Below are positions 12,095-39,500 of a DNA stretch of 64,000 nucleotides, one piece after another. The stretch is from Paraspadella gotoi (lineage: Eukaryota; Animalia; Chaetognatha): the NCBI GenBank assembly GCA_051294375.1, contig CM119267.1, positions 6,866,550 to 6,930,549 of the forward strand, read 5' to 3'. The notes under the pieces were generated by a model. That model searched no databases. It was not told the DNA's origin and worked only from the letters and a program-made list of their open reading frames with translations. A program made the translations under genes and the position numbers. Every line of letters begins with the position of its first letter. Positions within the stretch are counted from its first letter, which is position 1.

Positions 12095-12340
12095 TGTGGC
12101 AGCAAGACTTAAAGCTGCCTCACTGCTGTCCGTCCTCAATGGCTGAGCAGGCTAAATCATCTCATTCCATCCGTGCGTCCCGGGTTCAATCCCCGGGTAT
12201 CCCGGTTCTGGCTTAAATATGACGGTGCCGGTATAAACATGCCAGTGACAGGAGGCGGTCACTGAGGGTCCGCAGCCCCTGCGCCAGTTGGTGAGATACC
12301 CCGCGCCCCGGGTATCACAGGCTATCCTCCCGTTGCCATA
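12095..12340 (+). mobile_element. tRNA-headed, twister-containing solo-LTR-like element (family T1), 246 bp
   Basis: Ends TGTGGCAGC...GTTGCCATA; 4-bp direct repeat CTAT at 12091-12094 and 12341-12344; A box TGGCTGAGCAGG 12140-12151; B box GGTTCAATCCC 12183-12193; near-identical inverted copy at 33535-33791. Confidence 0.9.
12208..12287 (+). ncRNA. Twister ribozyme, type P5 permutation
   Basis: CTGGC(P5) TTAA ATAT(P2') GA CGG(T1) TGCCGGTA(P1) TAA ACAT(P2) GC CAGTGAC-loop-GTCACTG(P3) A GGG TCCGCAGC CCC(P4/L4) TGC GCCAG(P5); one P2 mismatch; predicted cleavage U12234|A12235. Confidence 0.8.
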
Positions 12341-14245
12341 CTATATATTTATTACTGAGTCATTTAGGACGCAGAGACAGATCACGCTTAATTTCATGTG
12401 CACGAAAAAAAAATTATCGGTCATTAAATTTACTTTGTCTGACCATTTGTACTAATTTGTACTAATAAGCCATCCCTTCCTGACAATTATGCTAAATGAC
12501 TTTGTTAAATTATTTCATAAACATTAACAGCACAAATCATGGACTCAAAAGTGGCGCGACGCAAGTCATTGATGATCAAAGCTCATGATCGACATAATGA
12601 TAATTACTCTCTCTTTCTTTCTTTCTTTCTTTCTTTCTTTTCTTTTCTCCCTTTTTTTCATTTTAAAATTTTTTTTCCCATTATCGTTTCTGTTTTTCCA
12701 TCACACCTCTCTCTCTCTTTCTCTCTCTCTCTCTCTCTCTCTCTCTTCCTCTCTCTCTCTCTGTCTCTCTCTCTCTCTCTCTCTCACTCTCTTTTCTCTC
12801 TCTCACTCACTCACTCTCTCTCCCATTCATTAAATCAACACTCCATTTTGCCAGGTTATTAAAACCTTTTGGATGATGAAAGCGAAAAAAAACGGAAAAA
12901 TTGGCACCACAAAAAAAAAAAAAAATATTAAAATTTCTAGGATTCGAGTTTATTTTTTGTGTCGCGAAAATGATTCCAATTTTCTCTCTTTTTTTTTCTT
13001 TTCGTACGAAGAGAAAAAAATTTGTTCTCTTTGATTACGTTTTCAATTTTTTTTTTTTTTTTTTTTTTTTTGAAGAGAGAAAATTATGGTTTCGTGGAAG
13101 GAAACAGTGTAAGGCGTGAAATGAGAGAGAGACAGTGGGAGTGAGAGAGAGACAGAGAAGGGGAGGGAGAGAGAGAGAAAGAGAGCGAAAAGGAGAGAAA
13201 GAGCGATTGTAATCCGGCGTAGGTTCTGATTTAGAAAGGGAGTCGTCGATATGGCTTAGTCGTCGTCGTCGTCGTCGTTGTCGTTGTCGTCGTCGTCGTG
13301 AAAGTCACAATTATAAAAGTAAAATAAATTAAAATAAAAAAGCGAAAAATTAAAGAATAAATTAAAATAATAATCATTTTTAATACAGACAAAGAAAACA
13401 AAAATAAAAAAAAGATTAATTATGTTTTTAAACAAAGACTAAAAAATACAAAAAAAAACAACAAATTAAAATGCTTCATTTGATCCCAAAAAGAAAAAAA
13501 TGGAACCAAAGAAAATGGAAATGAACCATTAAAGAAAATGAAGAAAGGAATTCTCTAAAATGAAGACAAAATGAACAGAAAATTGAGACGTGAAACTCGA
13601 GGGGGAAAAAGATATGTCATTTGTTTCTTCCCACTTCGAAAGAAAATAACCACGTAATTTGTTTAAACAATAAAAATCGAGTTAGTTTAACCTCAACTGC
13701 GAGTTAGACGAAGATCGGATTCACTAGTCACGAACCAGCGATTCCTCATGCTGATCTCCGACCAGCGGTTGCTTAGAATTAATCATAATCTTTAACCTTT
13801 CTGTTACTATTTCAATGTTTTCCGAAGTAAACAATATCATAATTTATGTAAACAATAAAAAACGTAAATAAATATCGGGGAACGTCGGAGGCCAAATCTT
13901 GATCTTGACTGATTAATACGAAAAATATCTTCTTCGTTAGCGTCGGCTAATTAAAAAAAAGAAAAAAAGAAACACATTTTGGATTTCATAAAGCAACTAC
14001 AACAAAAACAATGGCAGCCATTTAAACTTGATATAACCCCTTTTAAAAATATAAAACGATTTCGGTACATCATATTTGCATTCCGCGCCATTTTTTGCGC
14101 ATCTTACACCATCAGCAATCAGCATGATACACTTTACTCTGATGAGATCCTTCTCCATCACTCATTCTCGCCTTTCTCCAGCACCTTCTCCATCAAACAT
14201 CCTCACCTTTCTCCAGCATCTTCGCAATCCTCTCCGCCTCATTCC

Positions 14246-36500: not shown

Positions 36501-39500
36501 CTCGAAGACTACAGACGAGGAGAGTCCAAGATCACCAACGGGCACATCCGGGTCGAGGGCGAAGAAGACAGAGGTGAGGCAGGGGTCAGGGTGTAGTTAC
36601 GAGGTGAGGTGCGAACTTTAAGGGCGATGAAAACTAGACTCGACTGAGGGCAAGAACGTTAATAATTAAAAAAAATTACCAAGTACAAAAATATTATAAT
36701 AATACTAAAAAATAAGAAAATAATTGATTTTAAAATTTTTTTGGGCGATTCAGATTCTACATAAAAATTTAATCTATTACTTTAAAGAAAATGCAATATC
36801 TTATGCCAACAGCCGGGTTACCTGTGATGACCATTGGGATAGGGCATCTCACTGTTGGCTGGGGGCTTCCGACCCTCAGTGACGCCTCCAGTCACTGGCG
36901 TGGTTACCCTAGGACGTCTCGGCTTTGCCATCAGAGAGGGAGTCGTATGGAACACTACGCCTGGGATGGTGTGTTCCTCCTCTGAGCCAATGGAAGTTTG
37001 GCTGAAGGATGTGGACGTGAGGCGGTGTGAATATACCGCCACAATCTGATATTATTACCGAATGCGATAAAATTGTATAACTTTAATGTACAAACGCAGC
37101 AAAGAGACTCTAGAATTTGTTGTTGTTGTAGAGTAGAACCAGTTCGCTCTCACTTTGTATTCACATCGAATTGTAAATGTTTTTTCTCTCTTTAGAAAAT
37201 ATGGTAGCGGAGGCGGTTTGGACGTTTGCCGGGTTCATACTCGTCGTTTTCGTCACGATTCTGCTTTATTTCTACAGAAAGTAAGATTTAGTTTCGATCG
37301 ATCGATCAATCAATTTGACAATCAATAAATCAATTATATCAATCAATAAATCGATTAATAGATCAATCAAACAGTTTTTTTTTTCAAATCAATCGAATAT
37401 ATCAAAATTAAAATGATTCAAAAATTGAACATCAAATTAAAAAAATATATATTATCAAAAGGCGAAATGAAACGATAAAGAAAACAAGAAAAGAGGCCAA
37501 CGGTAAAAAAATTAATAAAAATGGACTCGTTTCCGTTCGATCGATTATCGCCCATCATCTCAAATGTTGTCACGCATGATTTTTTTTTAACTTATCCATT
37601 TTTTTAAACCATTTTTTTTATGACATCGGATTTTTTTTTTTGAAATATTTTTTTTCTCCCTTCTACAATTGGCGTAACTCATCAGTCATTCCTCCTGACG
37701 CTTGAGTCGTAAAAAAAAAAGGAGGAACCAATCATTAATTTTCCAGTCGACGATCCGGAGGCGAAGAGAAAACGGGAGACTCGATCCGCGCCAGATCCGT
37801 CACCCCGCCAGACGTAGCCACGCCCCCTCTCCCGCCCCCGCAAATGGCAAACAAGACTCACCAAAATGGGTGAGGCATTTCCGGACAACCTGGGGTTATA
37901 TGTTCTCCCATGTTTGCCGGAGAGAGAGAGAGAGAGAGAGAGAGAGAAGAGAGAGAGAGAGAGAGAGAGAGAGGAAGAGAGAGAGAGAAGAGCTCTGAGG
38001 TATTGCAAGGAGAAGAAAGTAAAAGGAAGAGAAAAAAAAGAACCAAATGGGAATCAATAAAAAGAGAAAAAGAAAAAACCCTGAAGCTGCCATATGCTAA
38101 TCAACCTCGGGACGAAAAAGCAATGGCTGTTTTTAGGGTCGATGATTGGCCGGAATGAAGCAGATTGGATTGATTGATTGACGCGGCACTGTCTTTAGTT
38201 TCATCATGTTGCGAGGTTTTAATTAAGTATAATTTAAACATCTTTTAAACTACCGTCGTTTTATAGATTTTATCGATGAAAATTTTCTACTTGGAGGAGT
38301 TGATATTTTTTTTTAGTGATTGAATTTTTACGTTTTACCTTCAAACGATCAACTTTAGATAACGTAATTAATTTTTAAAGCAACTTTTCCGTCCACATTT
38401 GATGAAATAAAATTAATAAAATTATTAAATTATTAAAATTATTAAAAACATTTAAAACGATAATTGACATAAATATGAACGTCCCCCACCATCCCGCCCC
38501 TTTCCGTCTTCAGCGGAGACCTCGGCGGGCACTTCGCCTCCTTCGCCAACTCCCTCGCCAGCCACTCGGGCGACCGGAGCCACTCCAATCTCCACGGATT
38601 CGCCACGATGAAGGCTCAACCCAACGGCATCTTCGAGTGAGGATGAGTCATCTATTGGAGCTGGAATTAAGTATGTTTAGTTATAAAATATAAATGTAAA
38701 CAATGTTTATGCAGTTCGGACCCGATGGCGATGGTGTCGAGTCAATCAGTCACGTCGAAACTCGGACGGCAAAGTCAGAGGTATATATATTATATATATT
38801 TTTAAACTCTTTTTAATTAGCAAACCTCGTCAACCTAAATATCTGACGTTGTTTGGTTTAAAGATCTGCAATGAAAGTTAACTGACCGTAAATGCGGTCA
38901 ACCAACCTCGTGGACAAACAGAAACTGAGAATGACTTAAAAAAACGAAGGCGAAGGCCTTTTGTTTTATATACCAGTTTTCGTAAGAATGTCGTTAAGAA
39001 GCGCTGAGGTAGACTACAAAAACAAAATAACAGTCAGGCTTATTTACTTCTTAGTTTTTTTTCTAGGAGGTAAGAAGAATCAAAATAAAGAGAATATAAA
39101 ATATAAACATTACAAAACAGTAGAAGTGAATGTTTACTATGCATATATTGACATAGGTTTTAAGAAACTTTCAAGGCATGAAAAAATGATACAAAAGAGA
39201 ACGAACATGCCATATTTAAATCATACTTACCGCCGACCCCTTCTCAACTTTCCCCCTTTCTACCCCCTCACCCATCGTCAGGAGCGTCGGCACCACCACC
39301 CTGCATCACATGACCCCTTTCAATCAATCGTCGCCGCTGACGGAGTCTCGCCCCGACGAGACGCCGACCGACGGAAGGTCGCGCGTCGGCTACGATCGCG
39401 GCGTCGGCGTCGGCGGGGATTTGGGCGACGCCGATCTTCGCGCCGGTTACGATCGAATCGACGCCGACGTCGGCTACGATCGCGGGCGAGAGGATCGGGG

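Follow-up and report, generated by a model that had tools for sequence, protein, structure and literature searches.

What kind of element leaves dispersed single copies of about 250 bp that have the ends of a long terminal repeat (LTR) and carry the motifs of a self-cleaving RNA inside? We asked this question for a stretch of 64,000 nucleotides from the chaetognath Paraspadella gotoi (contig CM119267.1 of assembly GCA_051294375.1, positions 6,866,550 to 6,930,549 of the forward strand). This whole stretch is called the window, and its positions are counted from its first letter. It contains four such insertions, E1 to E4. In E1, E2 and E3 we found a fold of the twister ribozyme type downstream of motifs resembling a tRNA-type promoter. 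We favour the reading, with a probability of about one half, that the insertions are solo LTRs of a Helenus-like, non-autonomous and non-coding element mobilised by Gypsy, which would be similar to the retrozymes of plants, with a twister in place of their hammerhead ribozyme.

Four insertions with 4-bp target-site duplications

An earlier note on this DNA, made from its letters alone, had described four units with TGTGG at the start and TA at the end, each lying between 4-bp direct repeats. We confirmed the coordinates (Table 1), both ends and the four target-site duplications (TSDs), which read CTAT, GTCT, AAAG and ATCT on the plus strand and CTAT, AGAC, CTTT and AGAT on the strand of the element. 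The duplications were exact and stood at homologous TGTGG...TA ends in all four units. When repeat lengths from 1 to 14 were compared, length 4 alone matched at all of E1-E4, and the local chance of a match between 4-letter flanks was 0.5-0.9% per copy. E1 and E3 shared 98.4% identity over the aligned columns, with one additional 11-bp indel, while the other pairs were 58-66% identical. Therefore, E1-E4 represent three subfamilies. The ends of the units were asymmetric, as 4-7 of the first 10 letters and 6-10 of the 20 terminal letters matched the inverted opposite end. We observed no poly-A or simple-repeat tail and no tandem array at E1-E4, which are dispersed single copies with a fixed 4-bp TSD. 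A fifth full copy was not found in the window with a profile built from E1-E4.

Further, we aligned contigs of four public sequencing runs (13 runs were listed overall) to positions 33440-33890, the region of E3. The summed contig depth rose from approximately 81 in the flank to approximately 640,000-800,000 inside E3 (33552 to 33775) in run X1, and from approximately 191 to approximately 510,000-930,000 over the same positions in run X4. This plateau implies thousands of copies of the E1/E3 subfamily, where thousands is an order of magnitude, as summed depth is not a copy number. Among the 2131 contigs of X1 aligned to the region, 1078 were at least 99% alike. The E1/E3 subfamily is young, with 98% identity between its two copies in the window and half of the X1 contigs at least 99% alike, and it is very abundant. 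Loose contig ends accumulated at 33535 and 33791/33792, which are the boundaries of E3. They were heterogeneous, with an agreement of 0.43-0.5 and no common neighbour, and the majority flank letters at the 33535 end were ATAT in all three runs that showed this end. Two runs guessed as RNA, X9 (141 contigs) and X10 (1 contig), also covered the element; their contigs are uninformative on strand, ends and expression. One X9 contig of 6372 nt, with a depth of 67.7, ended in the first ~110 bases of the element (33678-33787) and may come from a long parent element or from a transcript of the host.

The fixed 4-bp TSD, the sharp ends, flanks that tend towards ATAT, and the absence of both a poly-A tail and long inverted ends point to insertion of the integrase type. 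They support the earlier proposal that a solo-LTR-like unit was inserted by an integrase and not by the priming used by short interspersed elements (SINEs). Judged from these sequence features, it is likely that the LTR-like unit was integrated by an integrase, one probably borrowed from a Gypsy-type element. Drosophila Gypsy elements have 4-bp TSDs, with ATAT for 297, 412, blood, mdg1 and Transpac (PMC3276498), and a 4-bp TSD with ATAT was also reported for PbTRIM, a terminal-repeat retrotransposon in miniature (TRIM) of an ant (PMC3532108). Domains of a helper element were not met in the window: none of the 11 open frames tried matched a Pfam family, and one further protein search was empty.

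The window also contains a short AT-rich repeat, headed by a decayed twister core, at 4585-4700 (+), 11727-11817 (-), 12040-12094 (-) and 16016-16090 (+). One truncated copy adjoins E1. The repeat is not resumed on the right flank of E1, so the empty site of E1 cannot be checked within the window.

A twister fold in three of the four units

The earlier note had parsed all four units as twisters of type P5. The complete order, P5-AA-P2'-GA-T1'-P1-UAA-P2-GC-P3-P4(U-T1-NA-GC)-P5, was present in E1, E2 and E3, with the cut positions predicted there; the parse failed in E4, where P2 and T1 are unpaired. In the alignment of E1-E3, 80 of the 81 pair cells were standard and four of the 27 pairs changed on both sides (one in T1, one in P2 and two in P4). 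Covariation had been claimed for P2, P4 and P5. We found it double-sided in P2 and P4, while P5 changed on one side only among E1-E3. The T2 pairing, GC/GC, was invariant in these three units. When the alignment was slid by 1-3 columns, pairing fell to 31-45%. A shuffle control on the three-row alignment was weak, as 19-26 of 500 shuffles scored as high on four of five measures and 170 of 500 on the fifth.

A strict descriptor of the fold matched two cores in the window and none in any of 40 shuffles. A relaxed descriptor, which was tuned after hits had been seen, matched seven cores, against a mean of 0.175 and a maximum of 2 in 200 shuffles. The seven were E1, E2, E3 and cores at 39.8k, 61.8k, 62.1k and 4.6k. 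T1 formed all three of its pairs in seven of eight cores and occurred in four letter versions, each of which the earlier note had listed. In all five comparisons between subfamilies the twister was the best conserved of four segments (65-78% vs 48-67%). Within the twister of E3, variation of at least 3% was seen at just two positions in X1 and X4, both of them in the 2-bp P1; three further positions varied at 3-4% in X9.

The cores depart from the norm in two respects, a 2-bp P1 capped by a tetraloop and, in E1 and E3, a C at the position of A28. P1 of the twister is dispensable (PMC5408937; PMC5113685), and in the rice twister a relative activity of 0.9-1.0 is retained by many double mutants with A28C (PMC5113685, supplement), so both departures look tolerable. 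The twister fold of E1-E3 is very likely real, and cleavage at the predicted sites is likely.

In E1, E2 and E4 the letters immediately 5' of the predicted cut site, although not the same in each, are complementary to the 5' arm of the hairpin that follows the twister (e.g. 12230-12233 and 12296-12299 in E1). This may possibly be an on/off pairing, or a coincidence.

A tRNA-like segment as a candidate promoter

A and B boxes had been noted in each element. They are good in E1 and E3, where they lie 43 nt apart; the A box of E2 is weak and the B box of E4 is degraded (Table 1). Neither ARAGORN nor Rfam called a tRNA in E1-E4. There was no run of four T inside E1-E4, an outcome too likely by chance to count. 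From the boxes we infer a start of RNA polymerase III (Pol III) within the LTR, as is done for Helenus itself.

Table 1. Positions of the units, their promoter-like boxes and the twister-like cores in the window
Feature	Position	Strand	Description
E1	12095..12340	+	246-bp LTR-like unit, TGTGG...CATA; TSD CTAT (12091-12094, 12341-12344)
E2	16149..16406	-	258-bp unit; second subfamily (65% to E1/E3); TSD AGAC on element strand
E3	33535..33791	-	257-bp unit; high-copy subfamily shared with E1; TSD CTTT on element strand
E4	36802..37043	-	242-bp unit; third subfamily; TSD AGAT on element strand
E1 twister, type-P5 order	12208..12287	+	one pair of P2 is an A-C mismatch; C in place of first A of L4; predicted cut 12234|12235
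E2 twister	16203..16283	-	canonical L4 (U-CCA-AA-GC); predicted cut 16257|16256; GA-motif G at 16270
E3 twister	33588..33667	-	no non-standard pair among 27; GA-motif G at 33654; predicted cut 33641|33640
3' hairpin downstream of E1 twister	12295..12316	+	retained in E2 and E4, where the letters differ
E1 Pol III promoter candidate	12140..12192	+	boxes A (12140-12151) and B (12183-12192), without a cloverleaf
E2 promoter boxes	A box near 16349-16338, B box 16306-16297	-	A box weak, missed by regular expression
E3 promoter boxes	A box 33735-33724, B box 33692-33683	-	
E4 promoter boxes	A box 36989-36976	-	B box degraded
E4 twister-like core	36931-36855	-	P2 and T1 unpaired in P5 register
U5, P5-order core	39769..39842	-	P3, P4, P5 and T1 perfect, pairing of P2 poor; neither LTR ends nor a tRNA-like head recognised
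T2b, P5-order core	61801..61879	-	T1 UCC/GGA; preceded by B box at 61907; decayed second family
T2c, P5-order core without P3	62101..62158	+	T1 UCU/AGA; 5'-truncated, head-to-head with T2b
T3a, decayed P5-order core	4585..4645	+	T1 CCA/UGG; heads short repeat recurring near 11727, 12040 and 16016

Comparison with known elements

The units resemble Helenus, of the group TRIMp3 (Kojima 2024, PMC10886601), in their LTR-like size, the TG start, A and B boxes without a functional tRNA, the 4-bp TSD of animal members, the occurrence of solo LTRs and an inferred Gypsy helper. Helenus LTRs mostly end 30-50 bp past the tRNA-like part, in CA; E1-E4 extend about 150 bp further and end in TA, and most of them carry a twister. 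Since they end in TA and no internal part is proven, we do not class E1-E4 as members of Helenus. The main text of the Helenus paper had no match for twister and named the hammerhead solely in one reference title. By eye, neither the twister order nor a close relative was found among the animal Helenus LTRs of its supplement (parts 5-9 of 11).

Two of the published LTRs, Helenus-2_SyJa and Helenus-2_SyUm of Synergus gall wasps (PMC10886601, DataS1), appear to contain an unannotated core of a type III hammerhead right after the B box, with complementary sequences in loops I and II. Both features were read by eye and not computed. The word CTGATGA had eight matches in the Helenus supplement, and the two in SyJa and SyUm lay within a full core by eye. 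Both wasp elements are complete, with LTRs of 277 bp, an internal part of 485/487 bp and a 4-bp TSD. They share with E1-E3 the TGTGG start, an LTR of about 250-280 bp, a tRNA-like segment that lies in the 5' half and precedes the core of a small ribozyme, and the TSD length. They differ in having a hammerhead instead of a twister and in that two LTRs and an internal part are established in the wasp. The hammerhead after the B box thus suggests that an element with two established LTRs shares this arrangement.

The LTR retrozymes of plants (PMC4918200, PMC9695139, PMC7761336) are likewise non-coding, with a ribozyme in the LTR (a predicted one in our units), 4-bp TSDs, many solo LTRs and a Gypsy helper. 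Unlike E1-E3 they have a type III hammerhead and an LTR of about 350 bp, and a tRNA-type promoter is not described for them in these sources; their circles have been shown, while a circle of the present units is hypothetical. The type-P5 twister (PMC5408937, PMC5113685; Rfam clan CL00120) has the same P1-P5, T1 and T2, UAA and GA junctions, L4 loop and P5-open order. The differences lie in the 2-bp tetraloop-capped P1 and the C at A28 of E1 and E3, and in scores below the Rfam thresholds. The SINE-like hammerhead repeats of schistosomes and the non-LTR retrozymes of animals (PMC6765202, PMC7229834) likewise have a self-cleaving ribozyme after a Pol III promoter; they differ in their tandem arrays, type I hammerhead, longer TSDs and lack of LTR ends. 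Finally, the T-variants of Perere-3, an RTE element (PMC8501958), carry a twister in an animal retroelement. Perere-3 is autonomous and non-LTR and has its 5' end at the cut site, while in E1-E3 the whole ribozyme is internal.

The combination of a tRNA-like head and a twister in one LTR had been thought new. We found no paper that describes it, or a twister in an LTR, in the literature searched, which excludes most subscription journals, Repbase and Dfam. The novelty is narrowed by the schistosome repeats, in which a Pol III promoter and a ribozyme are already joined, and by Helenus, in which a tRNA-like head and a hammerhead apparently are.

Further twister-like cores in the window

A model built from E1-E3 gave 39 bits for E4 and 28.6 bits for the core at 39.8k (U5). 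Eight low-scoring matches of this model (E 0.17-3.5) were not counted, save three also met by the descriptor (61.8k, 62.1k and 4.6k). We rejected a type-P1 reading of E4 taken from the Rfam alignment, as T1 was unpaired in it and its partner strand was the 3' hairpin common to E1-E3.

Three decayed copies of a second family with a tRNA-like head and a twister, to which T2b and T2c belong, lie at 61470-62260. Two of them are head-to-head and one is 5'-truncated; one copy is followed by the head of another, as in insertions of the Penelope type. By eye, a short stretch in the tail of this family resembled the tail of the wasp Helenus-2 LTR.

A pattern scan for relatives gave no match in viral contigs and none in prokaryote genomes. 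The four matches in metagenomes were all rejected as chance, as they lay in bacterial-looking coding DNA.

The favoured explanation and its alternatives

The observed part of the favoured explanation is that a discrete unit of about 250 bp inserts with a 4-bp duplication and that E1/E3 reach a very high contig depth. Integration would be due to a borrowed Gypsy-type integrase, as suggested by the length of the TSD, the target bias and the ends. Judged from the A and B boxes, Pol III would start inside the 5' LTR, in a parent that has two LTRs and is short. The twister of each LTR, as predicted from its fold and covariation, would cut at U|AA and leave 2',3'-cyclic phosphate and 5'-OH ends. Two cuts in the two-LTR parent would then release a unit-length RNA without a terminal repeat. 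This RNA could be circularised by the host tRNA ligase; a hammerhead retrozyme RNA was circularised by host ligase in vitro (PMC7229834). The Gypsy reverse transcriptase would copy the circle from a primer binding site, and the Gypsy integrase would insert the copy. Solo LTRs would arise through recombination or stem from short cDNAs, as in the model for plant retrozymes (PMC4918200). A lone solo copy would merely trim off its tRNA-like 5' part and would give no circle.

Several results speak against a two-LTR element with a working twister. All four units end in TA, while nearly all of the Helenus LTRs read end in the canonical CA, although a few published ones also end in TA (PMC10886601, supplement). 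A primer binding site or a purine tract adjoined none of the four copies, and a two-LTR copy was not seen in the window. The joint from 33791 to 33535 was absent among the joints listed (15 of 20, from four runs) and from one further joint; since short-read contigs break at repeats, this absence is weak evidence. Four solo copies out of four do not refute a two-LTR parent, because high ratios of solo LTRs are known for retrozymes and for Ajax: in Nicotiana benthamiana nine full-length retrozymes were found among hundreds of loci, and for Ajax, LTRs number 1114 and internal parts 151 (PMC10886601). Both good promoter boxes are confined to the near-identical E1 and E3, with only the B box good in E2 and only the A box in E4. 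The search with Rfam models, proposed in the earlier note as a check, gave no significant score for twister: no twister family in Rfam reached its gathering score, twister-P5 was not listed at E<=10, and twister-P1 scored 24.2 bits in E4 and 20.8 bits in E2 against a cut-off of 67.2. The hammerhead family had no Rfam match in the window. The cores of E1-E3 were no more stable than shuffled sequences (z -0.04 to -0.37). The pseudoknot-free minimum-energy fold of E1 and E3 was a non-twister alternative, in which P2 and P4 had a pair probability below 0.1, while that of E2 included the nested helices of the twister. The core of E4 is broken and keeps just P3, the UAA/GC junctions and the L4 loop. 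The U5, T2 and T3 cores lack clear LTR ends.

The last point leads to the first alternative. As related cores occur without clear LTR ends, the twister could have arrived within another element. Ordinary solo LTRs of a TRIM or Gypsy element may have captured a SINE-like or Penelope-dependent unit of tRNA and twister, which would then be a trimming device or a passenger and would form no circle. We regard this main rival as rather unlikely. Kojima proposes that Helenus itself arose by insertion of a SINE into an LTR (PMC10886601). Units of tRNA and twister, or of twister only, without clear LTR ends do occur in the window. They include a 5'-truncated, head-to-head copy, an arrangement described for Penelope-like elements (PMC8557442), and such a cassette may stem from the decayed T2 copies. 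The 6372-nt contig that ends in the 5' part of the element would fit a long parent, or may simply be a host transcript. Nevertheless, the twister is the most conserved part across subfamilies that share the same ends, and its compensatory changes argue for selection after any capture. Moreover, if the argument of Kojima is followed, the length of a 6-kb parent would exceed what Pol III can transcribe (PMC10886601).

It is improbable that the unit of about 250 bp is itself the mobile element, its copies being made from a Pol III transcript or a circle and then taken over by an integrase. The four solo copies, the young and very abundant E1/E3 subfamily, and loose ends that are heterogeneous without a common neighbour are all consistent with it. 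The anatomy of the unit argues otherwise, as a transcript starting near the A box would lack the first ~40 bp, a single internal cut could not circularise it and there would be no way to restore its 5' end. A high proportion of solo copies is normal, as noted above for N. benthamiana retrozymes and Ajax.

A still smaller chance is left to a miniature inverted-repeat transposable element (MITE) moved by an integrase-like transposase of the Ginger2 type, with the RNA motifs as cargo. Ginger2 gives 4-bp TSDs in RTATAY targets, and a non-autonomous member of 252 bp is listed (PMC2836005). It needs, however, inverted repeats of 50-180 bp and TGTNR at both ends (PMC2836005), and in our units only 6-10 of 20 terminal letters match; a DNA transposon would also leave the conservation of promoter and ribozyme unexplained. 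The least credible reading, a non-cleaving twister-like fold that arose by chance in a GC-rich hairpin region, would fit the sub-threshold Rfam scores, the lack of a folding z-score, the broken E4 and the hand-tuned descriptors, but the junction motifs all stand in order, T1 is paired in four letter versions and seven matches were found where 0.175 were expected.

Significance

So far, LTR retrozymes have been a matter of plants and hammerheads only, the retrozymes of animals are non-LTR, and twisters have been tied to non-LTR retroelements, being known from RTE elements (PMC8501958, PMC7761336). The E1-E3 type would join two known kinds, TRIMp3/Helenus and the LTR retrozyme, and a retrozyme cycle is plausible for it. 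A broader proposal is that animals harbour Pol III-driven LTR retrozymes whose ribozyme can be exchanged, with a twister in three subfamilies of this invertebrate and a hammerhead in the Helenus of gall wasps. We offer it tentatively, at odds slightly short of even. If it is true, double self-cleavage and circularisation would replace the strand transfer through an R region, which is hard for a short Pol III transcript. Genomic twisters would get a defined job, and small circular RNAs would gain a new natural source. An animal LTR with a tRNA-type promoter and a twister would link TRIMp3 with the retrozymes, show that the class of ribozyme is interchangeable and give eukaryotic twisters a role that can be tested. 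The unannotated hammerhead of the wasp Helenus would provide a second system, in which the two-LTR form is already known. Thousands of twister copies invisible to Rfam would mean that counts of genomic twisters are underestimates.

Other features of the window

The window is rich in microsatellites and contains gaps. A large inverted duplication (22834-25775 / 25901-28523) is 81-90% identical in pieces of 0.5-1.3 kb, and the frames tried in it had no Pfam match. An intact tRNA-Asp gene lies at 50866-50938 (+), and 200 bp upstream of it (~50650-50705, +) is a broken fragment of tRNA-like sequence that includes a B box. A receptor-like open frame at 44824-45777 (-) had no Pfam match and a seven-helix look by eye. 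Among five other open frames of the window that were compared with Pfam, olfactomedin and MIEAP (mitochondria-eating protein) were the sole families found. The MIEAP exon is at 51721-52035 (+), and its best relatives listed were in molluscs, with 58-66% identity (54 matches among 82 candidates), which by itself makes an invertebrate host likely. The olfactomedin exon is at 62892-63092 (+).

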